A DNA stretch of 64,000 nucleotides from Solirubrobacterales bacterium (GCA_044867645.1 JBIOVI010000063.1:329-64328), one strand, 5' to 3'; counted from the first letter of the stretch, positions 2,449-17,240 are shown. Translations and numbers: made by a program. The notes: a model not told the origin generated them from the letters alone.

Positions 2449-3309
2449 CTAGGCGGCTTCGTCCTCGCCAGCCCTGCCCCTGAGGATCGCCTGGGTCGGC
2501 GATTCCCAGGGCGCAGGCTCAACCAGGCTGACCCGAGACACCCGGCGGCGCACCGCGCGTGGAAGCCAGACCCGGTAGGTGACCGCGCGGAGCATCCGTG
2601 CCCGGCGTGATGGCAGGGGTGGCTCGAGCAGCATGCGCCGCGCTGCGCGGGGAAGCTGCACGGCGATTTGCACAGGCGCCACCGTGCTCTCAGCGGAAAA
2701 CGAGGCGAGGAATCTGCGGACGGCGTCGTTTGGATCGCTGTCCGCCGCGAGCCACTCAACGTGTCCCTTCTCTTGAATCTCGTGGCCGATGCGGCCGAGA
2801 ACGCCAACCTGTTCGGCCATACGCTCGAGTTGGGCCCGGCGACTCGGATCGGGCGTCTGATCAAATCCGCCGCACCAGACGCCTCGAACCAGACGGCCGA
2901 GGATCATCGCCCCGTTCGAGCCGTACTCATCTCCGGCCGCCTGATAGGTGACAAGCAGTTCGCGCCCGTCGACCAGGCGGCCTTCCAGCGTCCAGCGCAG
3001 CTGACCGCGCCGTGGGTACACACACTCCATCGTTCCTCTCACCCGGTTTCCCTGGCGGCGAAGTCGGATGAGGCCGATGAAGTAGGGAGCGCACCACCCT
3101 GCATCGTCAGACCTGTAGGCCACGCACCAGAACCAGCGACCGAGAGGAGTACGCTGGGCCTGGAGGCCGTCGAGCAATCGTACGAGCGCCTCGCGCGCCA
3201 GAACTCCGATCAGGGTAAGCGCAAGCGCCACCCCCAATTCGGGGACTGAAAGACCCGCTAGAACTGCCATGCGTCGCCACCTCCACCGACCGAGCCTTGG
3301 GCGCGCCAA
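2449..3309 (-). CDS. hypothetical membrane-anchored protein (orphan)
   Basis: 286-aa ORF with an N-terminal TM helix (AVLAGLSVPELGVALALTLIGVLA). No motif recognised. Start and true extent uncertain in a high-GC context. Confidence 0.4.
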   Translation of the reverse strand: MARPRLGRWRWRRMAVLAGLSVPELGVALALTLIGVLAREALVRLLDGLQAQRTPLGRWFWCVAYRSDDAGWCAPYFIGLIRLRRQGNRVRGTMECVYPRRGQLRWTLEGRLVDGRELLVTYQAAGDEYGSNGAMILGRLVRGVWCGGFDQTPDPSRRAQLERMAEQVGVLGRIGHEIQEKGHVEWLAADSDPNDAVRRFLASFSAESTVAPVQIAVQLPRAARRMLLEPPLPSRRARMLRAVTYRVWLPRAVRRRVSRVSLVEPAPWESPTQAILRGRAGEDEAA

Positions 3310-3594
3310 TGAGGCAGCGAGAACTCGCCGGGGTCGTCTGCTATAAGTCCCCTCCAGCCGGGATCCATTTAGTCTTTCCCTTTCTTGTTGAGGCTTGGAT
3401 TTCGACTAGCGCGAGCCCCGCTGAACCCGGGGCTTGTGCGCTTCCGGGACTCACTTTCCGCTTCCCCCAAAAGGGAGAGGTGAACGCGACGTAACTGTCT
3501 GGTTACAGACCAGTTACAGGCGGAAGCAGTGCTGTTCCCAAACAAGTAGGAACGTTCTCTTCAAAGCACCCCGAATTGGCGTTAAATTCCCAAC

Positions 3595-4236
3595 GTGGGC
3601 CGGATCTACGACGCGACCTGGGGGAGGGTCTTCTCGGCCCTCTACGACAGCATGCTGCGCGGCACCGAGGAGGCGGGGCTGCGCGACCGGCGCCGCGAGG
3701 TCCTCTCCGCGGCGCGCGGTCGCACGATCGAGATCGGCGCCGGAACCGGGGCGAATCTCGGCCTCTATCCGGCGGCGGTCAGCGAGCTGGTCCTCGCCGA
3801 GCCCGACCCCCATATGCTCAAGAAGCTTCGTATGAAAGTGGGGGAAGGCGGGGTGGACGCCGAGGTCGTGGCGGCACCGGCACAGAGCCTGCCCTTTGCC
3901 GACTCGAGCTTCGACACGGCCGTCTTCACCCTGGTCCTCTGCACGGTTTCCGATCCCGCCGCCGCGCTCGCCGAGGCGGCGAGGGTCCTGCGGCCCGGCG
4001 GCAAGCTGCTCTTCGTCGAGCACGTCCGCGCCGAGAACGCCGACCTCGCCCGCTGGCAGGACCGGCTCGAGCGGCCATGGCGCTTCATCGGCGACGGTTG
4101 CCACTGCAACCGCGACACCGTGGCGACGATCGAAGCGTCACCGCTGACGGTCGAGCGGGTCGACAAGGGCCAGCTGCCGAAGTCGCCGCCGCTGGTGCGG
4201 CCCCTGGTCTGGGGCAGCGCGACGCTGGCCGCTTGA
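3595..4236 (+). CDS. class I SAM-dependent methyltransferase
   Basis: 213 aa. SAM motif I TIEIGAGTGANL, post-I and motif III region LRPGGKLLFVEH (Methyltransf_11-like). Confidence 0.8.
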   Translation: MGRIYDATWGRVFSALYDSMLRGTEEAGLRDRRREVLSAARGRTIEIGAGTGANLGLYPAAVSELVLAEPDPHMLKKLRMKVGEGGVDAEVVAAPAQSLPFADSSFDTAVFTLVLCTVSDPAAALAEAARVLRPGGKLLFVEHVRAENADLARWQDRLERPWRFIGDGCHCNRDTVATIEASPLTVERVDKGQLPKSPPLVRPLVWGSATLAA

Positions 4237-4277
4237 GCTTCGGCAAGCCGTGCGCAGGGTCAGCCGCTCGCCGATCT

Positions 4278-4297
4278 AACGCACGATAATGGCGGTT
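4278..4297. repeat. left copy of 20-bp direct repeat AACGCACGATAATGGCGGTT (attL-like)
   Basis: Exact match to 12327-12346. The downstream sequence diverges (CTCCGCTTG). Confidence 0.9.
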
Positions 4298-4422
4298 CTC
4301 CGCTTGTTGCGTCCGGATGGTTTGCAAGGTTCGCCGCGTGAATCAGACCATCTGGCAAGGGCGGGGTTTCCAGGGGTTTTTTGAGGCATCCGTCGCCCTT
4401 GCCAAGACTTTAGGAGGCGGCT

Positions 4423-4752
4423 ATGCGCGCGTCTTTTCCGACGCAATTCGACGGGGTCATCCTCGGCAAAAGTAGGGAGGCGGGGTCTTTCGACACTCCC
4501 GACGGCGAGGTCAAGTTCGGGGATGCTTACGAGCTGTCGTTCGAGAGTAGTGATGGGCTCACCCAAACTTGCCGAGTTGGCCTTAAGCAGCTCGATGAGG
4601 CCTCCGACTTCGATGTCCAGAAGGCCGGCCCGTTCAGGGCTGTTCGGGTTGTCGGCGACGTTCAGGTCAGTGACAAAGGGGGGTACCTCCGGCTCACGTC
4701 AGTGAGGCTGCACCCGTCTTCTGACCCGGCCAACGCTGGCAAAAAAACCTGA
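4423..4752 (+). CDS. prophage protein, 109 aa (candidate ssDNA-binding gV analogue; function speculative)
   Basis: ATG 7 nt after TAGGAGG. Soluble, beta-strand-rich looking sequence, first gene after attL. Size is in the range of inovirus ssDNA-binding proteins, but no motif was recognised. Confidence 0.6.
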   Translation: MRASFPTQFDGVILGKSREAGSFDTPDGEVKFGDAYELSFESSDGLTQTCRVGLKQLDEASDFDVQKAGPFRAVRVVGDVQVSDKGGYLRLTSVRLHPSSDPANAGKKT

Positions 4753-4770
4753 TCGGGGTGGGCTTCCGAC

Positions 4771-5388
4771 ATGGAGCAGCGCCCGGCGATTCGTCGTCGT
4801 CTCCTCCTCGTTGGCTTCTTGCTCTCGCTTGGCGTCTATGCGCTGGTGGGGCTGGCGGTCTTCGCAGGTCGGGCTCTGGCTGACGAACCGCCTGTCTATA
4901 CGCCACCCGCCGAAATCGCCTCGGAGCCACCGGCTCCAGAAGGCCAGCCGTCGTGTCCCGACCTCGAACTCGAAGCCTTCGAAGGGGAAGACGCGGCGGC
5001 CGGCGAAGTGCGGCTGTTGCGAGGAGAGTCGGCTGAGGCGTGCGCTGCAATCTCGGCCCGACTTGACCGCATCCGGGAACGCCTCTGGTGGATGGTGGCA
5101 GAGGCACTGGTCGCCGGGGGCAGGGCCGAGCTCAGCCATGAGCTTCTCGAGCAGATCGGGGAATCTGTCGGCGAACCGACCTGTCCGATGCCTTGCCCGG
5201 TGTTGATCGACGGCGACTCTCCGGTCGAAGTCCAGGATTCCTCTTCGCAGGAGTACAACGACGAATTGGTCAGCGCGGTCGATGCCTCCGGAGAAGCGAG
5301 CAAGGCGGCGCTCTGGTTTATCGCGGGGCTCCTGGTGGCCGGCGTCATCGCCTACATGATCATCAGGGCGGTGCGCGATGGGACGTGA
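4771..5388 (+). CDS. prophage type-I membrane protein, 205 aa (signal peptide + acidic ectodomain + C-terminal anchor)
   Basis: N-terminal RRRLLLVGFLLSLGVYALVGLAVFAGRALA-DE, acidic Cys-containing middle, C-terminal TM ALWFIAGLLVAGVIAYMII followed by RAVRD. Confidence 0.6.
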   Translation: MEQRPAIRRRLLLVGFLLSLGVYALVGLAVFAGRALADEPPVYTPPAEIASEPPAPEGQPSCPDLELEAFEGEDAAAGEVRLLRGESAEACAAISARLDRIRERLWWMVAEALVAGGRAELSHELLEQIGESVGEPTCPMPCPVLIDGDSPVEVQDSSSQEYNDELVSAVDASGEASKAALWFIAGLLVAGVIAYMIIRAVRDGT

Positions 5389-5445
5389 TGCGCAGTTCGG
5401 CATCGTCATCCGGCGGCGGTCGTTCTTCTGCGTCTCGCGCCCGGC

Positions 5446-5874
5446 ATGGGTCGCCTGTTCACGTGCAGGTGTTGTGCTCAGGTGGTGGCGCTGATGGCGA
5501 TCGCTCTCGCGGTGTTCGTCTACCTGGTGGTCCGGATCAGTTGGTGGCTCACGGGATTCGTCTTCCGAGGGGCGCAGCCCCGATCAGCGCGGTGGTCGCT
5601 CCAGCGCCCGTTGTTAGGGCGCTGGTCGCCCTCATCTGTAAGGAGGCTGCGCGGCCTCGCTAACCACGGTCCGGATGCAGTACTTCCTCGCACCGCCACG
5701 ACCTCTACACGACCTACCCGCTCGATGTTGGTCGGGTCGGGGGCGATCTCCCCGGCCCCTGATTTGGGGGCGTTCACCGCGGGCTTGGAAGTCATGGTCT
5801 TCACCGCACTATTCACGGTCAGCGCGTTGCTGGTGCTGATGTGGATCATAAAAATGATGAGGGGCAGTGAGTAA
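5446..5874 (+). CDS. prophage membrane protein, 142 aa (may be two smaller products)
   Basis: N-terminal TM (VVALMAIALAVFVYLVV) and a coat-like C-terminal TM (MVFTALFTVSALLVLMWIIKMMRGSE). Locally low-GC codons. Start uncertain. Confidence 0.45.
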   Translation: MGRLFTCRCCAQVVALMAIALAVFVYLVVRISWWLTGFVFRGAQPRSARWSLQRPLLGRWSPSSVRRLRGLANHGPDAVLPRTATTSTRPTRSMLVGSGAISPAPDLGAFTAGLEVMVFTALFTVSALLVLMWIIKMMRGSE

Positions 5875-5911
5875 GCGGTGCGGGCCTCTCGACACAGAAA
5901 GGAGGTGCAAC

Positions 5912-6154
5912 ATGAAGATCATCAAGTCCTTGGGGGGCAAGCTGTCCCTCGCACTCGGCGTCTGCATGCTGACTGCGCTGGCCCTGGCCAGTTCGGCATC
6001 GGCGGCGCTGACGGTGGACGCGAAAGATTTCACCGAACCGGTGGAAACGCAGCTCGGCACGGCGGTCCCGATTGTCGTCGGGTTCCTGGCTGCGGTCTTC
6101 GTGGTCGGCTTCGTGATCCGATGGATCATCAAGCGGGCTCGTTCCGCCACCTGA
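5912..6154 (+). CDS. major coat protein precursor (pVIII-like), 80 aa
   Basis: ATG 5 nt after AAAGGAGGTG. Signal peptide ends ASSASA/A. Predicted 49-aa mature peptide has an acidic N-terminus (D,D,E,E), the helix AVPIVVGFLAAVFVVGFVI, and a basic tail RWIIKRARSAT. Confidence 0.75.
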   Translation: MKIIKSLGGKLSLALGVCMLTALALASSASAALTVDAKDFTEPVETQLGTAVPIVVGFLAAVFVVGFVIRWIIKRARSAT

Positions 6155-7713
6155 GGCTCGGGGTCCTGGGAGTCGTTTTCGGCGTGCTGGTTCTGGCGCT
6201 GCTGGCGACTCCCGGGACTGCCTCTGCGTTCATCGGTGAAAGCGTCGTGCTCAACCCCGCCAAAACCGACCTGACGGGACCGGCGAAAACGATCTTGACT
6301 AACCCAACGTTTCTTCCGGAGACGACTGATGGAGCGGCAGCACTTGGCGGGGTCGCGGAGGAGTCGGCCGCAGCGGGAGTCTTTGAGGGGGCGGGCATCT
6401 TGCCCGCACTTGCGTCGGTTGTGTCGTTTGGAGTCGGCACGGTGATCGGCTCTGAGATTTGCAAAGTGATCGGCATCGAAGGGTGCTGGTATTTCGGTTC
6501 CGAAGGAGCCGACCCGGCGACTGGTGTTGCGGAATACCATTGGAATTGGATAGGCGCTGGCGAAGGTAAATACCCGTTCAACTGGTACTGGTCGCGTGGT
6601 GAAGCGGGCTACAAGTACGGATCGGGGGCGAAAAGCGCCTGCGGGAACGTGATTCCAGGTGGCATGAGCCTTTTCGATGCTACTGGCGGGAATACGGCGT
6701 GCGGGGTCGGCGAAAAAATCCCGACGCCGAACGGTCTCCCGTGGCGGTGGGCAATGGAGAATCGTGTGCTCGACTATCACGCCGTGGATGACCCGGGCAC
6801 TTCGAACTACGCCTACACGGCTCCCTCGAATTGGTCGGAAAAACTGGCGAAACAGTTGAAAGAACACTCCGGGGACGCGGCCGGGCGTGTCGGGCAGAAG
6901 ATCGCATCCAAAATCGGAGGTTCAGGCGTGTCTGACCCGTACCCGCACAAAGTCACGATCCCTTCTTGCAGCGGTGAGTCGTGGATCGAATGCAAAGGCG
7001 ACCTTGAAGAACTCGAACTGGTGCCGGAACGTGTGGAGCTCGACTGGTCGGATGCCCATCTGGACCTCGCGCCTGACGAGGTCGTTGAACTCGATCCGGC
7101 TCCGTCGACGAAAGTCGAGGTACCGAGTGAATCGGCGGTCGTCGTCACTACCAACCCTGATGACGCCGGGATGCCGATCGTCGTTCCTCAGCCCGAACCA
7201 GGGGAGACCTACAGCCATTACGCGGCGCGCCTGAACTCGGGGCTCTCTCCCGAACGTCACGATCTGGAGGCTGCTTTCGTCTCGCCCTCAACCGGGCCGA
7301 ACGGAGTTGTCTCGGTCCAGCCCGAGCCGGAGACCAGGCTGGACCCTTCAACGACGCACAAAGTCGATGTGTCGACCAACCCAGCGGACGCCCCGATGGT
7401 GGCCGCCCCCTGGTCGCCGCCGTCGATCCCGTCGATCAGCATGGCACCCCTGACGACCCTGGGCAGTCCGTGCTCTGTTTTCCCCTTCGGCTTGCTCTGC
7501 TGGCTCGGTGAAGGACTTGCTCAGTTCAACACCGCAGGCGTTTGTCCGCACGCGGCGGTCCCCGTCAACGACGAGGCCGATTTTGAACTCACCTTGTGTG
7601 GTGAAACCTCCGACCAGGTGATGGGGTACGTGCGGCCGGCGTTGCTCCTGGTCTTCATTGTCGGTTGCGGCTTCTTGTTCGCAAAGGCGACGAAGGCGAT
7701 CGGCGGCGACTGA
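6121..7713 (+). CDS. adsorption / minor coat protein (pIII-like), about 530 aa
   Basis: ATG at 6121 inside the 611-aa ORF gives signal peptide RHLRLGVLGVVFGVLVLALLATPGTASA. The Cys-rich ectodomain is followed by a Pro/Glu/Thr-rich repeat region and a C-terminal anchor ALLLVFIVGCGFLFAKATK. Confidence 0.65.
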   Translation: MDHQAGSFRHLRLGVLGVVFGVLVLALLATPGTASAFIGESVVLNPAKTDLTGPAKTILTNPTFLPETTDGAAALGGVAEESAAAGVFEGAGILPALASVVSFGVGTVIGSEICKVIGIEGCWYFGSEGADPATGVAEYHWNWIGAGEGKYPFNWYWSRGEAGYKYGSGAKSACGNVIPGGMSLFDATGGNTACGVGEKIPTPNGLPWRWAMENRVLDYHAVDDPGTSNYAYTAPSNWSEKLAKQLKEHSGDAAGRVGQKIASKIGGSGVSDPYPHKVTIPSCSGESWIECKGDLEELELVPERVELDWSDAHLDLAPDEVVELDPAPSTKVEVPSESAVVVTTNPDDAGMPIVVPQPEPGETYSHYAARLNSGLSPERHDLEAAFVSPSTGPNGVVSVQPEPETRLDPSTTHKVDVSTNPADAPMVAAPWSPPSIPSISMAPLTTLGSPCSVFPFGLLCWLGEGLAQFNTAGVCPHAAVPVNDEADFELTLCGETSDQVMGYVRPALLLVFIVGCGFLFAKATKAIGGD

Positions 7714-8009
7714 TGCTCACGCTGCTCTCCGACATCTGGCACGGCATCCTCGATATTCCGTACCTCGTGGTCGCCCTTCTGGTCGAATCGATCAATGGCT
7801 GGATTCTGATCCTGGCGGCGATTGTCTCGGCCATCCTGGCCGTGCTCCCGAGCTTCCCGAGCATCCCTACTCTTGACGGTGACATTTTGGCTGGCGTCGC
7901 CTGGTTCCTGCCGATCAGCGCGATGCTGGCTGTGTTTTCCACGTTCGTGGGGGCCTTCGTCATCTGGCTTGGCGTCTCGGCGGCCCTTCGCTGGGGGAAG
8001 ATGTTGTGA
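7713..8009 (+). CDS. pVI-like polytopic minor coat / membrane protein, 98 aa
   Basis: ATG overlaps the upstream stop (TGATG). Three hydrophobic segments. Lies directly after the pIII-like gene, as in Ff phages. Confidence 0.6.
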   Translation: MLTLLSDIWHGILDIPYLVVALLVESINGWILILAAIVSAILAVLPSFPSIPTLDGDILAGVAWFLPISAMLAVFSTFVGAFVIWLGVSAALRWGKML

Positions 8010-8131
8010 GCCGGTCAGAGCGGCTCAGGGATGGCCTGGCGGCCTTTCTCGGCCGACGGGTTCGTGGCGTCGTCACCCTTCTCGTGTTGTTTGTGCTGCT
8101 GGGTCAGTTAGCGAAGGCGGCCCTCGGGTGA
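8006..8131 (+). CDS. 41-aa single-TM mini-protein (hand-translated)
   Basis: GTG overlaps the upstream TGA (GTGA). Sequence VSRSERLRDGLAAFLGRRVRGVVTLLVLFVLLGQLAKAALG. Below the ORF-track size cutoff. Confidence 0.45.
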   Translation: MSRSERLRDGLAAFLGRRVRGVVTLLVLFVLLGQLAKAALG

Positions 8132-8256
8132 GATGGATCGTGGCCATGGTGCTGGCGGCCGTCGCTGGCTCGATCGCATACAGCCTCGGGGCCGGTCCCG
8201 AGGTTGCCTACGTGGTGAGGTCTATCGTCCGCCATCTTGCCGGGGGGTACGGGTGA
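8128..8256 (+). CDS. 42-aa single-TM mini-protein (hand-translated)
   Basis: GTG overlaps the upstream TGA (GTGA). Sequence VRWIVAMVLAAVAGSIAYSLGAGPEVAYVVRSIVRHLAGGYG. Its TGA overlaps the GTG of the Zot-like gene. Confidence 0.45.
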   Translation: MRWIVAMVLAAVAGSIAYSLGAGPEVAYVVRSIVRHLAGGYG

Positions 8257-9110
8257 TACGTCTTGTCACCGGTCCGCTCGGGACCGGCAAGAGCTACTAC
8301 GGCACCAGGAAGGCGGCTCAGGCCATCCGAGAAGGCAAGATGGTCGCGACCAACTTCGATCTCGTGCCCGACTGGATTGACCAGGTCGTTCGCCATGGTC
8401 GTCTCAGGAAGAACAGTCGCAAGGTCAACGCTCGCGCGGACCGGTTTTCGAGGAGGTACATCCGCATCGAGACGATGCAGGAACTGATGCAGCTTCGGGT
8501 TCGCCCGGAGCCTCCTTGGGCGAAGGAGATTGAACCTGGCAAGTGGCAATTGCGGGAAGGCGTTCTCGTCGTGATCCTCGATGAGGCGCACCGCTGGATG
8601 AATGCTCGTAGTTGGTCCCGAGAGGGCCGCGAAGAATTGCTCGAATTCTTCGCACTGGCACGGAAGATGGGGATGGAGGTTTACCTGATCGCTCAGCGGG
8701 CCGAGAACCTCGACGTCCAGGTGCGCGAGCTGTTCGAGGACCACATCAAGCTCACCAACCTTCGCCGATCAGCGCGACTCATGGGGATTCCCGTGATCCC
8801 GTTCAACTATTTCATTGCGGGCTGGCGCAACCACGCCTACCCAGACGAGGTCGTGAAGACCGAGCGCTACAGACTCGGCTGGGAGAAGAGGCTCTACGAC
8901 ACGATGGACACCGTCAGCTTCACGGAGGGCTCGAAGGGCGGTGGCGGCCTGTACCTGCCGCGAGACGAGTCCGACGCCCTGATCGGAGATGCAGCGGCGG
9001 ACGGCGCGTCAGCGCCGTCGCCCCTCGCCCCGCCGGCCGCCGGCGGATCGGTCGCGGATGACGCTGCCGACCCGGGCGAGAGGCCGTCGGTCCCAGACCC
9101 AGCGTTGTGA
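8253..9110 (+). CDS. pI / Zot-family P-loop assembly ATPase, 285 aa
   Basis: Walker A VTGPLGTGKS at residues 6-15 and Walker B VVILDEAH. The stretch DEAHRWMNARSW..ELLEFFALARKMGMEVYLIAQ is collinear with M13 pI as I recall it. No TM helix in this ORF. Confidence 0.85.
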   Translation: MIRLVTGPLGTGKSYYGTRKAAQAIREGKMVATNFDLVPDWIDQVVRHGRLRKNSRKVNARADRFSRRYIRIETMQELMQLRVRPEPPWAKEIEPGKWQLREGVLVVILDEAHRWMNARSWSREGREELLEFFALARKMGMEVYLIAQRAENLDVQVRELFEDHIKLTNLRRSARLMGIPVIPFNYFIAGWRNHAYPDEVVKTERYRLGWEKRLYDTMDTVSFTEGSKGGGGLYLPRDESDALIGDAAADGASAPSPLAPPAAGGSVADDAADPGERPSVPDPAL

Positions 9111-9217
9111 CATCCCAGGATAATGGTGACCAAGAAAGTCAACAAATGCGGTGGAGGAGCAGGGTCCTCTAACAGCCCATCTGGTCTCAAATATGAGACA
9201 GGGCTAGGGAAGACTTT

Positions 9218-10183
9218 GTGATCGACGCGGCGGGGGTGGATACCTGGTCGGTCTGCTGGTACTTGCCGGAGGAAGGCCCGGCGCATCGAGCAATGGAGGC
9301 AATGGCGACCGAGCGCGCAGCACGCAGCTTTCTTCTCCCAGAACCGGTCGAGGGGCATCGTGTCGGCTGGTTCCCTGGGAGCAGGATGATGTTCGCCGAG
9401 GGGCATCCGATACCCGGAGCTTTGGCGCCAGCTGTGGGTCTGCCGGCAGCACTGAATCGCCTTACACATGCTCTCGCTGATCGCGGCCTTCAAGTGCCCG
9501 ATCAGGAGTGCCGTTTTGGCTGGAGCAAGGGCCTCCATGGTGTTCGGCGTCTCGACGCCACTGTTGATCTGCGGTTCGATTCTCCAGCCGAGGGCCTCGC
9601 GGCGCTGGCAGGGGTGGCAGCCCTGCCGCTTCCGCGAATGAAAACGCAGGTAATGCGAGAGGTTGGCGGTCGGCGCGTCGAGACGGTCTATTTCCGAGGA
9701 ACGAGCGGTAAGAGGGTGCTCGGTAGGTGGTATGACAAGGGCATCGAGAGCGGCGACGCTGTGCGAGGCCTGCATGTTCGGCCTGAGGATCAGCGTCGCT
9801 TCTCTAAAGACACGAGACCAACGGTCGAGGAGGTTGCATCTACGACTTATGTTCGGGATGCTTTCGTGCGAAGATTCGAACCACTCTGGCGAGCGGCAAA
9901 GGGGGTCAAGGTGGGTGGCGTGGTCGAGTTAGCGCACCGGTTGGCGGAGCTTCAAGATGACGGCGTGATAACGGCGGCGGAAGCTAAGCGGATCGCCGGG
10001 CATCTTGTTCTTGATTCGATCGACGCACATCGCCAGTCACGCTCGCAGTGCTACAAGGACAGGGCGGCGGCGCGCCGTCATGGGCTCGTCCTTGCAGATG
10101 GCGTGCTGGACGAGGTCGAGGTTGATCTAGGGGATGTGCTTGAGCATGCGCTTGATTCAGATCTCTGGGGCTGTCAGGGCTAA
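9218..10183 (+). CDS. rolling-circle replication initiator, Rep_trans (RstA/pT181 RepC-like) family
   Basis: 321 aa with GTG start. Motifs resemble the family signatures: VRRLDATVDL (R-hDhxhD) and RVLGRWYDKGIE (hYDK, catalytic Tyr region). Confidence 0.7.
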   Translation: MIDAAGVDTWSVCWYLPEEGPAHRAMEAMATERAARSFLLPEPVEGHRVGWFPGSRMMFAEGHPIPGALAPAVGLPAALNRLTHALADRGLQVPDQECRFGWSKGLHGVRRLDATVDLRFDSPAEGLAALAGVAALPLPRMKTQVMREVGGRRVETVYFRGTSGKRVLGRWYDKGIESGDAVRGLHVRPEDQRRFSKDTRPTVEEVASTTYVRDAFVRRFEPLWRAAKGVKVGGVVELAHRLAELQDDGVITAAEAKRIAGHLVLDSIDAHRQSRSQCYKDRAAARRHGLVLADGVLDEVEVDLGDVLEHALDSDLWGCQG

Positions 10184-10278
10184 CTTGAGTTAGCTGACCT
10201 TTCGGGGCTTCCTTTGCTCCACGGGATTTAGCGTAAAGGTGGGGGGGTGGCTCTAGGGTTCTGAGGCCGGCCCCCTGT

Positions 10279-10312
10279 CCCTCAGCGAGGCACCTCTCAT
10301 ACTCGCTGAGGG
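10279..10312 (+). promoter_or_regulatory. stem-loop (11-bp perfect stem CCCTCAGCGAG / CTCGCTGAGGG, 12-nt loop) in the prophage intergenic region
   Basis: Read directly from the sequence. It lies 96 nt after the rep stop. Candidate origin or packaging hairpin. Confidence 0.5.
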
Positions 10313-10324
10313 GTACCGGCACAA

Positions 10325-10368
10325 GGGCGCGGGCGGTTTCCGATACGGCCGCCCGCGCCCACTTTTTT
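10325..10368 (+). terminator. rho-independent terminator-like hairpin (12-bp GC stem + T6)
   Basis: GGGCGCGGGCGG - 12 nt - CCGCCCGCGCCC followed by ACTTTTTTG. Downstream of the morphogenesis and rep genes. Confidence 0.65.
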
Positions 10369-10709
10369 GTCAGCCGGACTTCATGATCTGGAGCATTGGA
10401 ACGACACGTTTCGTCTGGAGCATGCCCATGGCGATCACCTCCTCCCATTAATTCGCTCAAGCTGCCGCCCTGCTCGGCAGGTGCGGCGCCAGGTGCTCGT
10501 GAACAATGCTCCAAAGCGCTTTGACCGGTCAGTTCCAAATGCCGCAAAATGCGAGGAACTCACTCAGTATTTGGTTAACTACTCGGCGTTTCAGCATCCA
10601 ATCCGTTTATTGAGGAGGCCGCCGTGGTTCCTAAAAAAAGGGCAAGGCGAGGAAGGTCCGGGGTCAAGGGCGGCCGGAGAATGAAGCGAGTGCCCGGGGA
10701 GGCCCTAAG

Positions 10710-11420
10710 TTGAGTCAACGCGGAGAGACGAAGAAGGCGAGGGATCGGGCAGAGGGTCTTATTGACCCGAACTTGAATGTGGTCGTTAAAGATCCGCTGC
10801 GAGTCCAGATTCTGGCTATCGCGATCCAACGCTCAATCAGTCCCAGCGAATTTTCTAGAGAGTCGGGTTGCCCCTTAAACACGACTTCCTACCACTTCAA
10901 GGTCCTTCTGAAGCATGGCTTTATTGAGCTTGTGGACCACGTGCAAGTTCGCGGGGCGACTAAGCACATGTACCGGGCCACCAAAAGCGGCTTTATTAGC
11001 GATAAGGACTGGGGCCAGGTCGCACAGGCTGTTCGACCTGGCATTGCCGGAGCAATCTTGCAGGACTTCAATGCACGTGTTGTCCAATCGATGGAGAGCG
11101 GCTCCTTTTACTCACGAGATGACGCCTGCATGTTTTGGATGCCGCTCGCCCTTGACGAGCATACGTGGCCGAAGTTTGTAGAGATGCTGTCTTGGGCAAT
11201 CGCGGAAGCCAAAGAGTTCGAGGTTGAGACGGTAAAACGCCGAGCCGATGGGAAGGAGGACTCCTGCATTCCCGTGACTTTCGCCATTGCTGGTTTCGAG
11301 TCGCCTACTGCGGCAGAAGTCAAGGCCAAAGGCAAGTCGAAGGCCAAGCGGAAGCGATCCCGTGCCACAAGGAAGGATAATCGTGAGGGTCGGCGTAGGC
11401 AGAAACCAGGCCGGACGTGA
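10710..11420 (+). CDS. ArsR-family winged-HTH regulator with long C-terminal extension and basic tail, 236 aa
   Basis: TTG start 7 nt after GGGGAGG. HTH_20-like segment LRVQILAIAIQRSISPSEFSRESGCPLNTTSYHFKVLLKHGFIELV. Lys/Arg-rich C-terminus. Confidence 0.7.
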   Translation: MSQRGETKKARDRAEGLIDPNLNVVVKDPLRVQILAIAIQRSISPSEFSRESGCPLNTTSYHFKVLLKHGFIELVDHVQVRGATKHMYRATKSGFISDKDWGQVAQAVRPGIAGAILQDFNARVVQSMESGSFYSRDDACMFWMPLALDEHTWPKFVEMLSWAIAEAKEFEVETVKRRADGKEDSCIPVTFAIAGFESPTAAEVKAKGKSKAKRKRSRATRKDNREGRRRQKPGRT

Positions 11421-11686
11421 GTTCGCTCCGATCAGTCATTCGTCACGATGTTCGCCTGGATATCCTTTCCTGCCTTCTGGCCGGGGAGCCTTTGAAAATC
11501 GCTGATTTGAGCGACAGGCTTAGTTGCTCCCAGCGAGTCGTCACCCATCACGTCAGGGTCCTCAGCGTGGCGGGGCTTTTGGCCCGAACCTTTGCCCGTA
11601 GGGGACAGAAACCGACCTACGTAACTTGTCTCGATGGGCACCCCGATTGGATCTCACGAGCCATTAGGGATCGTCGCTCCCGCTGA
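11417..11686 (+). CDS. small ArsR-family winged-HTH regulator, 89 aa
   Basis: GTG overlaps the upstream TGA (GTGA). HTH segment VRLDILSCLLAGEPLKIADLSDRLSCSQRVVTHHVRVLSVAGLL. Confidence 0.65.
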   Translation: MSSLRSVIRHDVRLDILSCLLAGEPLKIADLSDRLSCSQRVVTHHVRVLSVAGLLARTFARRGQKPTYVTCLDGHPDWISRAIRDRRSR

Positions 11687-11864
11687 GAGGATTTGTCTAC
11701 ACTGCATTTGACTCATGGGCATTGAGATCATCGCCGTTCGCTACGGCTGCGACTGGATCGAAAGGAGTCAAGGTGGCGGGAGCAATTGAGTTGGCCGTCT
11801 TTTTGGTCGTCGTCGGCTGCGTCGTTCTTGGCGTTGTTCAAGCTGCTTCTCTCGGCTGAGTCGC

Positions 11865-12182
11865 TTGTCCTTCGAGGTCGTCGCTGTTCGCTGGTCGTGC
11901 TGGGCCTGCGAGGCCACAGCCATTACCGCTCCGGGGCAATTGCCGGATGGCTGGTTCGAGTGGCCAGCGCCGCCGTGGCGGGCTCATCACCAGTCGCGCC
12001 ACGCTTGCCCGGATCACTCAGCCGACGCTCGGCAGATTCACCATCGGCAGTGGTCAGCGCAGCTAGGCCGTACGCATGCTGTCTCGGTCCAGGAGTACGA
12101 GGCTGCAAAGGTTGCATTGCAGCACGCAACCTTTCTGCTAGATCGCCTCAAGTTCAGCGGCGGGCGAACCGGTGACGGGTAA
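11865..12182 (+). CDS. hypothetical Cys/His/Trp-rich protein, 105 aa
   Basis: TTG-start ORF. CWAC ... HACPDH spacing hints at metal binding. A competing frame (11786-12175) looks less protein-like. Confidence 0.35.
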   Translation: MSFEVVAVRWSCWACEATAITAPGQLPDGWFEWPAPPWRAHHQSRHACPDHSADARQIHHRQWSAQLGRTHAVSVQEYEAAKVALQHATFLLDRLKFSGGRTGDG

Positions 12183-12326
12183 GCGTGAATCAGACCGTAG
12201 CCACCGGCTCGCCCGCCGCTGTGGTGGCTATTGTCGTCTCGCGGTCGGCGTGAACTCGGCCTTCGAAGCAGGAAGCCCTAATTTTCGGTAGGTCAGGCGT
12301 GGACTTTTAGGCCGAAATCTCCTGAC

Positions 12327-12346
12327 AACGCACGATAATGGCGGTT
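12327..12346. repeat. right copy of 20-bp direct repeat AACGCACGATAATGGCGGTT (attR-like)
   Basis: Exact match to 4278-4297. Confidence 0.9.
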
Positions 12347-12355
12347 ATGTGAACT
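12328..12355. other. dif-like 28-bp Xer recombination site ACGCACGATAA-TGGCGG-TTATGTGAACT
   Basis: 11-6-11 layout with inner ATAA / TTAT half-palindrome. The right arm matches the E. coli dif XerD arm TTATGTTAAAT at 9/11 positions. The left arm plus spacer lie within the 20-bp repeat. Confidence 0.55.
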
Positions 12356-13098
12356 CAGCCAATTCCGAGGACGCGGATGCGGGCGCTGTCGACCCTCGAC
12401 CCCGGTGCGCAGTTGTACGAGGTGAGACTCACGGTCAGGGTCTGCTCGGTCGGACTCTCGAAATTGATCCTCGGTTCTCCGCCGATGCCGGTCTTGACTG
12501 ACTCCGGGGCGCTCGACCCGGACTCCAACCAAGCGCCGCCGGCCTGCTGGCCGTTCACGTAGAGATGGACCTCGACACCGCAGTTCCCGTTCTGGCCCGC
12601 CTGAAGCGTCGCCTCGATCTGGCCAAAGACGACGTCGAACTCGCCGGCACGCGCCACCCAGGCGCCGCCTTGCAGCGGATAAGGCTCGCCCGTCGCGCCC
12701 TCGACACTCGCGGAGCCGCCGCTAGCGCCGGCGACAAATCCAACCGGTTCCTTCATATCCGCGGGCTCGATCGATTTGTCCTCGATCTGGCCGCCACCCA
12801 CGGCACCATCTCCGATCTGAGCACGACCGACCGCACCGGGAGCGATCTTGCCGCGAATGACGGCGCCCTCGGCGATTTGATCGCTCCCGACGGCACCGGG
12901 AGCGAGTTTGCCCCGTTTGACAGCCCCGGGGGCGATTTTCCCGGCCTTCACCGCCCGCGCGGCGATGTTGCCGCTGCGAACCTTGAGCTGGTTCGCGGCG
13001 TAGACGCTGCCGGACAGGGCGAAAAACAGCGCGAGCGTGGCGACCACGTTTGCGTAAGTCAGCTTGGATCGAAGTCGCATTGAAGTTCTCCAGTTCAT
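12355..13098 (-). CDS. secreted repeat protein (degenerate G-K-I-A-P-G-A-V repeats + C-terminal beta-rich domain)
   Basis: 247 aa. Signal-like N-terminus LTYANVVATLALFFALSGSVYA. About 7 degenerate repeats (GKIAPGAVKR, GKLAPGAVGS, IAEGAVIR ...). Confidence 0.65.
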   Translation of the reverse strand: MNWRTSMRLRSKLTYANVVATLALFFALSGSVYAANQLKVRSGNIAARAVKAGKIAPGAVKRGKLAPGAVGSDQIAEGAVIRGKIAPGAVGRAQIGDGAVGGGQIEDKSIEPADMKEPVGFVAGASGGSASVEGATGEPYPLQGGAWVARAGEFDVVFGQIEATLQAGQNGNCGVEVHLYVNGQQAGGAWLESGSSAPESVKTGIGGEPRINFESPTEQTLTVSLTSYNCAPGSRVDSARIRVLGIG

Positions 13099-13240
13099 GG
13101 CGCGTAGCCCGGCTCGCCGGGGCCGCTTCTAGTGGCGGCGGCCCCCTCGCTTCGGCATCGAACGCTCGCCGGGGTAACCGATTCGTTGCAACTACCAAGT
13201 AATGGCTGGCGATTCGGCCGTCGCGCTTGAACTTTGGCGC

Positions 13241-14005
13241 TCAACCCGCTTCGTCGATCGCCGATTCGATCTCACCAGCGGAGCCCGGAGTTCCGATCGT
13301 CTTCAGACCGGCGGTGCCCGGGCCTTCGACCGCGAAGGACGGCGTGCCGCTGAAGCCGAGCTCCTGCGCTTCGGCGGTCGTCCGATTCACCTCGGCGAGC
13401 ACGGGCTTGCTCTTGCGGTCGGTGTTCCACTGGGCGATGTCGGGTACGCCGGCACCTCTGGCGATTTCGGTTAGGAAGGCATCGTTGACGTAACCCGAGG
13501 CCTCGGCGCCCTGGTTGCGGTAGAAGAGCTCGACGAAGCTCCAGCCGCGTCCCTGCCTGCCGGCGGCGATCGCCGCCGCCCCGGCGGGGGTCGATTCCTC
13601 GCTGATGATCGTGTAGTTGCGAAAGTCGATCGTCGCTTCGCCGCTGCGCACCTTGGAGTCGATCACGTCGGGGAGAATTTCTTCCGCGAACCCTTTGCAG
13701 ACCGGGCACTGGAGGTCGCCGAACTCGACCAGCGTCACCTGTGCCGCCGGCTTCCCGAGCACCATCCCCTTCTGCGGAATCCCCTTCAGTTCGGTGCCGA
13801 CAACGCCCGTGTCCTCGAGCTTGGTGTCGCCACCGCTGCCCTGGTTCTGGCTGATCACGATCAGGACGGCGACCGCGGCGACCGCCAGGAAGGCGGCGGC
13901 GCTGCCGAGCTGTATCAGCCGCTGCCGCCGCTCCTTCCCCTCGATCTCGCCTTCCTCGCGCAGCCGCGCCTCGCGGCGCTCCTCCCTTGCACTCCTCCCA
14001 CTCAC
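13241..14005 (-). CDS. DsbA-family thiol:disulfide oxidoreductase (membrane-anchored)
   Basis: Thioredoxin-fold CPVC active site (FGDLQCPVCKGF). Charged N-terminus plus a TM helix. GTG start chosen at the GTGA overlap with the VKOR stop. Confidence 0.75.
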   Translation of the reverse strand: MSGRSAREERREARLREEGEIEGKERRQRLIQLGSAAAFLAVAAVAVLIVISQNQGSGGDTKLEDTGVVGTELKGIPQKGMVLGKPAAQVTLVEFGDLQCPVCKGFAEEILPDVIDSKVRSGEATIDFRNYTIISEESTPAGAAAIAAGRQGRGWSFVELFYRNQGAEASGYVNDAFLTEIARGAGVPDIAQWNTDRKSKPVLAEVNRTTAEAQELGFSGTPSFAVEGPGTAGLKTIGTPGSAGEIESAIDEAG

Positions 14006-15302: not shown

Positions 15303-15802
15303 CAAGGCAGGGCGGCGACGGCCTGCTCGAGATCGTCGACAGTCTGGAAGGTGCTGCCGGTTCTCGACACATGCCGGTAGCGGACGATCCCCTCGCCGTC
15401 GATGACGACGATCGCACGCATGATGTAGCGACCGCCTGGAGCGTCTTTGAGCTCGGTGAACCGCGCGAGCGGACCGAGCCACGCGGTCACCCCGTAGCGC
15501 TTGCTCACGGCGAGGTCCTCATCGGCCAGCAGCGGCACGTTGAGGCTCTGCTCCTGCACCCAGTGCTCGTGCGAGTCGACCGACTGCGGCGAGATGCCCA
15601 GCACCTCGGCGTCGAGCTGGTCGAGCCGCTCGCTGTTGTCGCGGTAGGAACAGAACTGTGCCGTGCAGACAGTGGTTTCGTCGCCCGGATAGAAGGCCAA
15701 CACGACGTTTCTTCCGCGCAGATCCGAGAGCTTGTAGGTCTTACCGCCCGTGCCCGGCAGCTCGAAATCGGGTGCCGCGTCGCCCACGTCGACCTTTGCC
15801 AT
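15302..15802 (-). CDS. peroxiredoxin (Bcp / AhpC-TSA family)
   Basis: 166 aa. APDFELP, and [15 protein letters not shown] with the peroxidatic Cys context. Confidence 0.85.
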
Positions 15803-15830
15803 GGGCCCCAGACTAGAGCAGCGGCGGCCT

Positions 15831-16523
15831 CTATTCCGAGTAGGTCAGAACCTTCCGGTTGCGTTTTTTCGCCCAGATCCAATCGATCACGACGTCCTGC
15901 TTCGGCTTTCCGGAAGGCGTACCCAGATCGCTGATCCGTTCGACCACGTCGAGTCCCTCGTCGACTTTGCCGATCAAGGCATATTCGGGGGGCAGGCCGG
16001 CGTCAGCCGCTAGAACGATGAAGAACTCGCTACGCGAGCGGCCGGGAGGGTCGTTGGGGCGCTTTGCCATTGCGACAACGCCCCGGGTGTAAGCGGTACC
16101 TGGAGGCGGCTTCTCGTCGACGCTGTAACCGGGGCCGCTGGCGAGCGGATCGCCGCCTTGAATCCTGAGGCCAGGTTCAAGTCGATCGAAAGCGAATCCC
16201 TCGTAGAAGCCCTTTTTTGCAAGAGCGGCGAACGAGCTGACGGTCTTCTGCGCGCGCTTGGTATCGAGAGCGATCTGGAATCTGCCGCAGTTCGTCTCTA
16301 CCAGCGCGACCAGATCTTCGTCCTTTTTCACAATGAACTCGGGTGCGTTGTACCCGTGGCGGGGAGTTGGCTTCGGTGCATCGACCTGCTTGCAGACTGG
16401 AGCGCTCGCCTCACTGGTCGAAGCGTCGTCCCCCCCACAGCCGATCGAATTCATCGCCACGACACCCGCGATGAGCGACGCGATCACGGCAATCGACTGC
16501 GTGCGGCCACGGCGACTCTCCAT
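15831..16523 (-). CDS. cyclophilin-type peptidyl-prolyl isomerase, lipoprotein-like
   Basis: [22 protein letters not shown] and SEFFIVL motifs. N-terminal signal with Cys (NSIGCGG). Confidence 0.8.
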
Positions 16524-16550
16524 TGCTATCGAAGCCTAGAGCATTCAAAA

Positions 16551-17240
16551 CTATCCCTTTTCGATCGAGATCGATTCGATCAGGACGGTCTGCTTCGGTT
16601 TTTCGGCAGGGGTGCCGAGCTTGCCTATCTGTTCGACCACCTCGAAGCCTTTGTCGACCTTGCCGACCAAGGCGTATTCGGGCGGCAGACCGGCGTCTGC
16701 GGAGAGGACGACGAAGAACTGGCTGCCCGAGCGGCCCGGGGGCTCGGCGGCGCTCTTAGCCATCGCCACTATGCCCTTGGTGTAGGCGAGGTTGGCGGGC
16801 GGTTTCTCGTCGACACTGTAGCCGGGACCGCCGGTCCCGGTCCCGAGCGGGTCGCCACCCTGGATCACGAAACCGGGTGCCACCCGGTGGAAAGTGAGGT
16901 CGTCGTAGAAACCTTCGTCGGAAAGGAAGACGAATGAATTGACGGTCTTCGGCGCCCGCTTCGTATCGAGCGCGATCTCGAAGCTGCCGCAGCTCGTCTT
17001 CACCACGGCGGTGAGCGTCTCTCCCTTCTTCACCGTCTGCTTGGGGGCACCAAAGCTGACGTTCTTCGGCTTCGGCGCCTTCACCTGCTTGCAGGCCGAG
17101 GAGCTCGCCGCGGTCGTCGAATCGCCGTCCCCGCCGCCGCGGCCGATCAGGATCGCCGCCACCACACCTACCGCGAGCACGGCGAATACCGCCAGGACGA
17201 TCAGCTTGGTGCGATCTTGACTCCCCGCCATCGGCCGCAA
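16551..17240 (-). CDS. cyclophilin-type peptidyl-prolyl isomerase (tandem paralog)
   Basis: FHRVAPGFVIQGGDPLGTGTGGPGY and SQFFVVL motifs. N-terminal TM segment. Confidence 0.8.
   Translation of the reverse strand: MRPMAGSQDRTKLIVLAVFAVLAVGVVAAILIGRGGGDGDSTTAASSSACKQVKAPKPKNVSFGAPKQTVKKGETLTAVVKTSCGSFEIALDTKRAPKTVNSFVFLSDEGFYDDLTFHRVAPGFVIQGGDPLGTGTGGPGYSVDEKPPANLAYTKGIVAMAKSAAEPPGRSGSQFFVVLSADAGLPPEYALVGKVDKGFEVVEQIGKLGTPAEKPKQTVLIESISIEKG

Follow-up and report, generated by a model that had tools for sequence, protein, structure and literature searches.

An apparently intact inovirus-like prophage at the probable dif site of a Solirubrobacterales bacterium, probably integrated by host XerC/XerD

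How a filamentous prophage without an integrase comes to lie in a chromosome is the question raised by a 64,000-nucleotide stretch of DNA from a Solirubrobacterales bacterium (GCA_044867645.1, JBIOVI010000063.1:329-64328), referred to here, at its full length, as the window. The original prediction, made from the sequence alone, placed an integrase-less, inovirus-like prophage at positions 4278 to 12355, and the analysis presented here bears this out: the block encodes a Zot-type assembly ATPase, a module of coat and membrane proteins and a protein with the fold of a rolling-circle initiator, and homologous prophages occupy the same site in related genomes. We propose that the element has no integrase of its own because it uses the chromosome-dimer-resolution system of its host. 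On the combined evidence we hold, with considerable confidence, that it is an apparently intact inovirus-like (Tubulavirales) prophage located at dif in a member of the Solirubrobacterales (Thermoleophilia, Actinomycetota) and integrating by means of host Xer recombination. This explanation of the missing integrase, together with the empty sites found in relatives, a qualified status for the initiator and an origin-like hairpin, goes beyond what had been predicted.

The attachment site and its conservation

The block is bounded by an exact 20-bp direct repeat, AACGCACGATAATGGCGGTT, at 4278-4297 and 12327-12346, which is the longest exact repeat of the window. Exact 19-mers are also repeated elsewhere in this GC-rich sequence, and the length of the repeat therefore proves little by itself. 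Between the repeats the GC content is 0.614, versus 0.682 in the left flank and 0.672-0.681 in the right flank, and every open reading frame (ORF) of the block with homologues lies on the plus strand, in keeping with the all-plus, lower-GC block described at first. The element measures 8.05 kb, and the GC skew of its plus strand (+0.076) fits the expectation for a replicon that is coded and replicated on one strand. The predicted ORF sizes recur in gene calls made independently for two further assemblies of this element (109, 205, 80, 530, 98, 285, 321/296 and 236 amino acids, aa). The read sets SRR30692733 and SRR30692700 also contain this exact prophage. Pfam assigned no integrase, secretin, capsid or tail family to the block ORFs; likewise, scans with Pfam, PHROGs and NCBIfam identified no lysis family among them and no integrase, recombinase or transposase family in any of them, as the original prediction had it.

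Read together with the 9 bases that follow it, the right repeat (12328-12355) constitutes a 28-bp sequence, ACGCACGATAA-TGGCGG-TTATGTGAACT, with the XerC arm, spacer and XerD arm of a dif site. This complete dif-like site, which we designate attR (12327..12355, plus strand), has its XerC arm at 12328-12338, its spacer at 12339-12344 and the XerD arm TTATGTGAACT at 12345-12355. The left junction, attL (4278..4306, plus strand), consists of the same XerC arm (ACGCACGATAA, 4279-4289) and spacer (TGGCGG, 4290-4295), followed by a phage-side arm, TTCTCCGCTTG (4296-4306), that is degenerate and unlike the XerD arm. The reconstructed attP reads CTGACAACGCACGATAATGGCGGTTCTCCGCTTG. Since the repeat corresponds to the XerC arm and spacer of dif, integration was most likely carried out by host XerC/XerD. 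No second, inverted dif-like site was found, the element holding only two direct copies of the core and none on the opposite strand; the attachment site would therefore be used in double-stranded form, and not as a folded single strand of the CTX type.

The assignment of the 28-bp sequence to dif relies on both its composition and its distribution. For Frankia alni, Kono et al. 2011 (PMC3025954) proposed the dif sequence CACGCCGATAATGCACATTATGTCAAGT, with similar sites in Nocardia and Thermobifida; divided into its parts, the proposed Frankia site reads CACGCCGATAA-TGCACA-TTATGTCAAGT. The attR site fits the shared actinobacterial pattern CGATAA-N6-TTATGTNAA, and the XerC/XerD dif pattern shared by Actinobacteria, Bacillus and E. 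coli, CGATAA-N6-TTATGT.AA, is matched by both of its arms. A scan of one genome per species with the pattern CGCACGATAATNNNNNNTATGTNAAC identified a dif-like site in at least 120 contigs, with one match in each, almost all of them from metagenome-assembled genomes (MAGs) of Solirubrobacterales or Thermoleophilia. The arm positions left free by the pattern are nearly invariant, while the spacer varies (TGGTGG in 83 of the matches listed, and many others), yielding AACGCACGATAA-N6-TTATGTNAAC as the consensus for the order. Complete chromosomes with the site include OY969702.1 (near 624.5 kb), OY970339.1 (near 906.3 kb) and OY970074.1 (near 1,224.2 kb). In one MAG, BP_442, the pattern is present on two contigs (L067 and L090), which may reflect strain heterogeneity, bin contamination or a true second site.

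The genomic context of the site is conserved as well. Among the 120 loci listed, a methyltransferase homologue lies left of the site in 86, and DsbA and VKOR lie right of it in 107 and 95, respectively. The gaps between the site and its neighbour genes often span tens of bases, and as little as 18 and 34 bp in locus L021, which identifies these as empty sites. In related genomes the site is thus usually empty, between the same host genes, and the element occurs in some related species and not in others. Averaged over the listed loci, GC skew changes from +0.007 left of the site to -0.009 right of it, and the right 52 kb of the window have a mean skew of -0.021.

Prophages with the same nine core genes, encoding initiators 42-79% identical to that of the window, occupy the same site in L001/L029, L003, L040, L130 and L139. 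The left junction again presents the XerC arm and spacer without a XerD arm in L001, L003, L005, L006, L136 and L139, and the phage-side arm differs between elements and is GC-rich in each (TTCTCCGCTTG in the window, TTCCCGCCTAC, ATCGGGTTTTT, TTCTCGTCTCC, TTCGCGCCGCC and TTCTTGTTTTG in others, versus TTATGTNAACY in dif). In every element that can be read at both ends, the flanking repeat takes up the local spacer, with TGGCGG in both repeats of the window, TGGTGG in those of L001, TCATGG in those of L005 and TCTTGG in those of L006. Two metagenomic inovirus proviruses among the uncultivated virus genomes of IMG/VR, 3300012090_000058 and _000059, end in direct repeats of 21-27 nt that constitute a dif-derived core; they share the core genes of the window element, with initiators 53-58% identical to its own, and differ from it in their spacers (TCATGG and TCTTGG) and in having no two-regulator insert. 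These entries fit the class of non-canonical att sites of Roux et al. 2019 (PMC6813254), in the main text of which XerC does not occur and the matches listed for "dif" are the beginnings of words such as "different" instead of the site. The lineage is thus already catalogued in IMG/VR but uncharacterised; in the literature, no paper linking inoviruses with Solirubrobacterales was found, and the terms "exploiting Xer" and "Actinobacteria" were found together only as single passing mentions on other topics.

Partial and unusual copies were also encountered. About 2 kb left of dif, L027 harbors a remnant comprising an initiator fragment and the last conserved gene of the element, bounded by a copy of the XerC arm with a degenerate spacer, and L058 retains at dif an initiator fragment only. 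On the 7.2-kb contig L004 a complete dif (3103-3131) follows the end of the prophage, and the genes beyond it have no Pfam match and are not the usual DsbA and VKOR; the contig ends in a partial ORF of 309 aa. The region beyond this dif may be a different neighbourhood or a second element.

A different account of these data would hold that the 28-bp sequence is some other conserved intergenic palindrome, that the 20-bp repeat is an ordinary att core and that the recombinase is encoded elsewhere. Local regulation could account for the conservation of the site, which is always flanked by the same two genes, and the GC-skew evidence for a terminus is weak. We nonetheless regard this account as very improbable: the arms fit the XerC/XerD pattern, and their invariance next to a variable spacer is typical of dif; the site occurs once per contig, with a single genome having it on two; no recombinase gene lies in or beside the element; and the asymmetry of the junctions, in which the XerC arm and spacer are duplicated and the XerD arm is found on the right only, is that of known Xer-exploiting elements.

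By analogy with those elements, the window prophage may be classed as an integrative mobile element that exploits Xer (IMEX), with an attachment site of the same construction as in TLCphi and the gonococcal genetic island. Under the proposed mechanism, the circular double-stranded replicative form would carry the XerC arm of the host, a 6-bp spacer and an arm that is no longer XerD-like, and host XerC/XerD would recombine this site with the chromosomal dif to generate a crippled attL and a complete dif at attR. A complete dif at attR would preserve dimer resolution and, in principle, allow excision.

The host genes that flank the element in the window follow the general arrangement, with a gene for an S-adenosylmethionine-dependent methyltransferase (3595-4236, plus strand) at the end of the left flank and, all on the minus strand of the right flank, genes for a 247-aa repeat protein, a DsbA-like thioredoxin, VKOR and an alpha/beta hydrolase. 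In most relatives DsbA directly follows dif, and the 247-aa gene (12355-13098, minus strand) accounts for some 0.9 kb of additional sequence in the window. Its product has an N-terminal membrane span and peptide repeats such as GKIAPGAV, encoded by 30-nt tandem repeats at 12783-12932, and its stop codon overlaps the last base of the XerD arm. The gene was considered as the mark of a second element, and this was dropped, the sole homologue among the 120 loci listed lying on the opposite side of dif, beyond the methyltransferase gene. Right of the hydrolase gene, at 15500-17000, the GC content falls a second time, to 0.61-0.63.

Virion genes and the replication initiator

The assignment of the element to the inoviruses is carried primarily by its 285-aa P-loop protein (8253..9110, plus strand), likened at the outset to M13 pI. 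This protein matches the Zot family PF05707 with an E-value of 1.1e-14 and 54.9 bits, where the cut-off is 20.3, and phrog_1675, "protein I of M13", with an E-value of 2.6e-23, and a tblastn search with it retrieved 87 inovirus records, with identity below 33% among the matches listed. The small genome, which falls within the range of about 5-15 kb usual for such phages, the coding on a single strand and a gene order collinear with that of phages B5 and VGJphi all conform to the filamentous-phage layout initially proposed and to the inovirus order of genes for replication, ssDNA binding, coat, adsorption and assembly. All nine core genes are full length by comparison with relatives, to which they show 31-79% identity.

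The candidate major coat precursor is the 80-aa product of 5912..6154 (plus strand), which has a signal peptide, an acidic mature N-terminus, one membrane span and a basic C-terminus, with a predicted mature form of 49 residues. Its profile matches are below threshold (PF05356, E 0.025; phrog_1646, E 0.0016); its layout is that of a classic inovirus coat protein, and the independent assemblies also call it at 80 aa. It is followed by a 530-aa secreted, pIII-like adsorption protein (6121..7713, plus strand), which carries a signal peptide and is anchored by its C-terminus. A segment of this protein resembles PASTA domains, which bind peptidoglycan precursors, with all such matches below threshold (best E 4.8e-4; NF033483, E 0.0011) and weak or faint in two relatives; as judged from sequence, such a segment would suit an adsorption protein directed at a Gram-positive host. 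Next come a 98-aa pVI-like protein with two membrane spans (7713..8009, plus strand) and a 41-aa protein with one (8006..8131, plus strand), an ORF of the same size lying at the same place in L001. Encoded just upstream of the Zot/pI gene, this conserved single-span protein might supply the anchor of the ATPase.

Upstream of the coat gene, the first gene past the non-coding region (4423..4752, plus strand) encodes a 109-aa soluble protein that is 53-71% identical in relatives, has no membrane span and matches no profile in Pfam, PHROGs or NCBIfam; its position suggests a putative single-stranded DNA-binding protein, analogous to that of gene V. The 205-aa product of 4771..5388 (plus strand) has a membrane span at either terminus. 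A 142-aa ORF (5446..5874, plus strand) is conserved only in its C-terminal ~45 residues, which include one membrane span, for which reason a later start is assumed, and it probably encodes a small minor-coat-like protein.

The remaining core function is replication, attributed to a 321-aa protein (Rep; 9218..10183, plus strand) that was originally called a Rep_trans-like initiator on the basis of the motifs RRLDATVD and RWYDKG. Both motifs are present and invariant across the family, which is large and unannotated: its close homologues number over 300, those with names coming from Solirubrobacterales MAGs, and at least 549 clusters at 50% identity reach E ≤ 1e-3. A tblastn search of 50,697 GenBank phages with Rep gave no match. 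The window protein does not reach the gathering threshold of PF02486, the Pfam family of Rep_trans, and among its homologues Rep_trans is matched below threshold by 4 of 41 members in one set (best E 0.068) and by 2 of 46 in another (best E 0.019). Similar sub-threshold matches were obtained for Phage_CRI (2 of 41, best E 0.019; 6 of 46, best E 0.005) and G2P_X_C (2 of 46), and unrelated families (SHOCT-like, ACT) match some members at comparable E-values. A profile built from the 41 homologues likewise retrieved no PDB sequence at E-values up to 10.

An AlphaFold (AF2) model computed from 41 sequences (predicted local distance difference test, pLDDT, 91; predicted template-modelling score, pTM, 0.86) has as its best Foldseek neighbours in the PDB four chains of 4CIJ, a Geobacillus rolling-circle initiator (E 5e-7 to 1e-6, probability 1.00), with template-modelling (TM) scores of only 0.30-0.41, and its viral structural neighbours include Inoviridae proteins. 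Five residues (R111, D113, Y172, R188 and E190) are invariant over 46 divergent members. Aligned by hhalign with 36 bona fide Rep_trans proteins, relatives of the VGJphi initiator, the Rep profile gives an E-value of 0.0012 and a probability of 20%, and the alignment pairs RWYDK...RPEDQ of Rep with the catalytic RIYNK...YRNEVE of Rep_trans; by eye, RLDxTxD matches RIDLAxD at equal spacing. The corresponding comparison with the single VGJphi protein was not significant. Rep therefore combines features of the Rep_trans fold with a tyrosine motif, R-x-Y-[DN]-K followed by R-x-E, and we conclude that it would work like a Rep_trans initiator, yet lies outside PF02486 by that family's own threshold. 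The initial call thus stands for the fold and the catalytic motifs, and not for Pfam membership. Rep represents an initiator family missed by current profile libraries, and annotation pipelines consequently call these prophages "hypothetical".

The weak profile matches behind the coat assignment could also be accommodated if the element were no virus but an integrative rolling-circle plasmid or a satellite, equipped with a Zot-like ATPase and in need of a helper for its transfer. Rep_trans initiators are typical of plasmids, and TLCphi, the closest analogue in its attachment site, is a satellite. The complete inovirus morphogenesis module in canonical order (coat, pIII-like, pVI-like, Zot), a size and strand asymmetry that fit an inovirus and the recovery of relatives as inovirus genomes in IMG/VR make this extremely unlikely. 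On the favoured reading, the element would replicate when its distant Rep_trans-like initiator nicks a conserved DNA hairpin beside the attachment site. The 109-aa protein would then coat the progeny single strand, which the Zot/pI ATPase, acting with the coat, pIII-like and pVI-like proteins, would extrude across the membrane. A secretin would not be needed, because the host has a single membrane.

Non-coding signals, accessory genes and evidence of activity

The hairpin in question, hairpin A (12155..12221, plus strand), has a stem of ~20 bp, in which 12155-12177 pairs with 12199-12221, and a loop containing the 14-nt word GCGTGAATCAGACC at 12183-12196. The structure is kept in 12 relatives, where 93% of cells pair and 11 of the 20 pairs are changed on both sides; none of 500 shuffles reaches this degree of pairing, and controls slid along the sequence yield 25-49%. 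Nearly all of these changes are Watson-Crick, with very few G-T intermediates, which fits a DNA hairpin, and an Rfam scan of 3500-13500 identified no family. Hairpin A is accordingly a candidate plus-strand origin or packaging signal, as far as can be told from base pairing.

An identical copy of the phage-specific loop word GCGTGAATCAGACC lies 38 nt past the attachment core, at the other end of the element (4336..4349, plus strand). An exact word of 12-14 nt is common to the two places in each of the six phages that can be compared on both sides, every phage having a word of its own, and only 0-2 of 300 shuffles attain that length. Because the two copies lie on either side of the attachment core, a single integrated prophage has one at each end. 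A second hairpin, hairpin C (4353..4404, plus strand; arms 4353-4363 and 4394-4404), directly precedes a ribosome-binding site, GGAGG, at 4413-4417. By eye, its arms, GGCAAGGG/CCCTTGCC, recur in L001 and, as GGCGAGGG/CCCTCGCC, in L006. Alignment further reveals a conserved non-coding block, AAACCCTAA..GGTAG..GACTTTTAGGCCGA (12271..12316, plus strand), just upstream of the attachment core.

In the window (11865..12182, plus strand), as in all relatives, the final gene ahead of the attachment site encodes a conserved 105-aa protein that combines a zinc ribbon with helices and has invariant residues C12, C15, C48 and H51. It belongs to no Pfam, PADLOC or NCBIfam family, and its AF2 model (pLDDT 85) has no Foldseek neighbour in the PDB below an E-value of 4. 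With neither a family nor a structural neighbour for this protein, a role like that of XafT, the activation factor of TLCphi, gained no support.

It is tempting to combine these features in a single scheme, in which the element is a self-sufficient Xer-exploiting phage of Actinomycetota, the zinc-ribbon protein replaces XafT/FtsK and the paired words are functional, both traits being undescribed in proteobacterial IMEXs. In such a scheme the zinc-ribbon protein, encoded beside the attachment site, could let Xer act on a site without a XerD arm, and the paired words could serve the initiator as start and stop signals on the chromosome or arrange the Xer synapse. Taken as a whole, we consider this scheme a long shot.

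Between Rep and the zinc-ribbon gene, the window element carries a specific insert of 1.7 kb (10184..11864, plus strand; GC 0.569), which is absent from every relative examined. It encodes two winged-helix proteins of the ArsR/HTH_20 type (10710-11420 and 11417-11686, plus strand), and its similarity to PADLOC models is limited to those named Csa3 and CARF3 (E 1e-3 to 1e-6). The insert may have come from elsewhere as an immunity or regulatory module.

Several results weigh against an Xer-integrated and still functional inovirus. Contigs of 7-8 kb with Rep homologues show no terminal overlaps, except for the two IMG/VR entries ending in att repeats. Two pattern scans of metagenomes for the predicted attP junction returned, in the first case, no match and, in the second, only the attL of two integrated relatives and six chance matches. 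Rep has no match in Pfam, PHROGs or NCBIfam and fails every sequence-profile threshold, and by hydropathy the Zot/pI homologue has no membrane span, unlike M13 pI. No trace of DUF3653, the family of XafT, was detected on any ORF or on 12 homologues of the 105-aa protein at E-values up to 10. Finally, GC skew around the site changes in the way that a terminus would predict, but only weakly, and the 120 loci, being syntenic with one another, are not independent as skew evidence.

Some of these observations would be explained if the prophage were cryptic or domesticated, having integrated at dif, lost excision and virion production, and since been simply inherited. The want of evidence for a circular junction or a free genome is what would be expected of such an element, as would the foreign 1.7-kb insert with two regulators between Rep and the last conserved gene and the remnants of related elements at dif in L027 and L058. 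Set against this, none of the nine core genes is truncated, the hairpin of the non-coding region has remained intact, as have the paired words, and the element is not fixed among related species. Moreover, two long-read metagenome contigs, L131 (7,021 bp) and L132 (7,040 bp), comprise exactly one phage unit without host flank. Their ends fall inside the att core (...GAGAACG / GTCGTCC...), with ~16 nt of the core missing; such contigs could represent a repeat edge of the assembly graph, from a phage present in several contexts, or a free form. On balance we think it unlikely, if far from negligible, that the prophage is cryptic, and favour an apparently intact phage that integrates at dif by host Xer.

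Comparison with known systems

To our knowledge, filamentous phages that borrow XerC/XerD have been studied in depth almost exclusively among Proteobacteria (Vibrio, Xanthomonas, Yersinia and Neisseria), and for high-GC Gram-positive hosts we know of a single characterised filamentous phage, B5. The locus described here and its relatives indicate that the same Xer strategy is used in a deep actinobacterial order common in soil, and their natural attP/dif pairs, with matching spacers, could serve to probe the rules of Xer recombination outside Proteobacteria.

Propionibacterium phage B5 (Paulinoviridae) has the same gene order, with a first gene of ~100 aa, small membrane proteins, a coat protein, proteins of ~500 and ~90 aa, Zot and Rep; it likewise has no secretin, and its GC content is similar (64%). 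Its initiator belongs to Rep_1 (PF01446), a family other than that of the window Rep, and blastp of all proteins against B5 yielded no significant similarity, the coat protein alone reaching an E-value of 7e-4 in this ten-protein database. With no real protein similarity and different Rep families, a placement of the window element among the relatives of B5 in the Paulinoviridae was rejected. The B5 record has 10 annotated features, none of them an att or dif site.

VGJphi and CTXphi also pair a Zot/pI protein with a Rep_trans-type initiator, integrate at dif by host Xer and share the gene order of the window element. The VGJphi Rep is a clear member of PF02486 (60 bits), whereas the window Rep falls below the threshold of that family, and the attachment site of VGJphi has two arms, whereas the XerD arm of the window element is lost. 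CTXphi has paired inverted attachment sites that form a forked hairpin in the single strand, and these are missing from the window element.

The closest parallels to the attachment site are TLCphi and the gonococcal genetic island, in which an XerC arm and spacer identical to those of dif adjoin a degenerate XerD arm (PMC4246890, PMC5357621). Both likewise lack an integrase of their own, and once they have integrated, one of the two sites is crippled and the other is a complete dif. TLCphi relies on an activation factor of its own, whereas no DUF3653/XafT homologue was detected in the window element. TLCphi is, moreover, a satellite in a proteobacterial host, Vibrio cholerae, whereas the window element resides in an actinobacterial host and encodes a full virion module, and it represents a known kind of element in a new host phylum.

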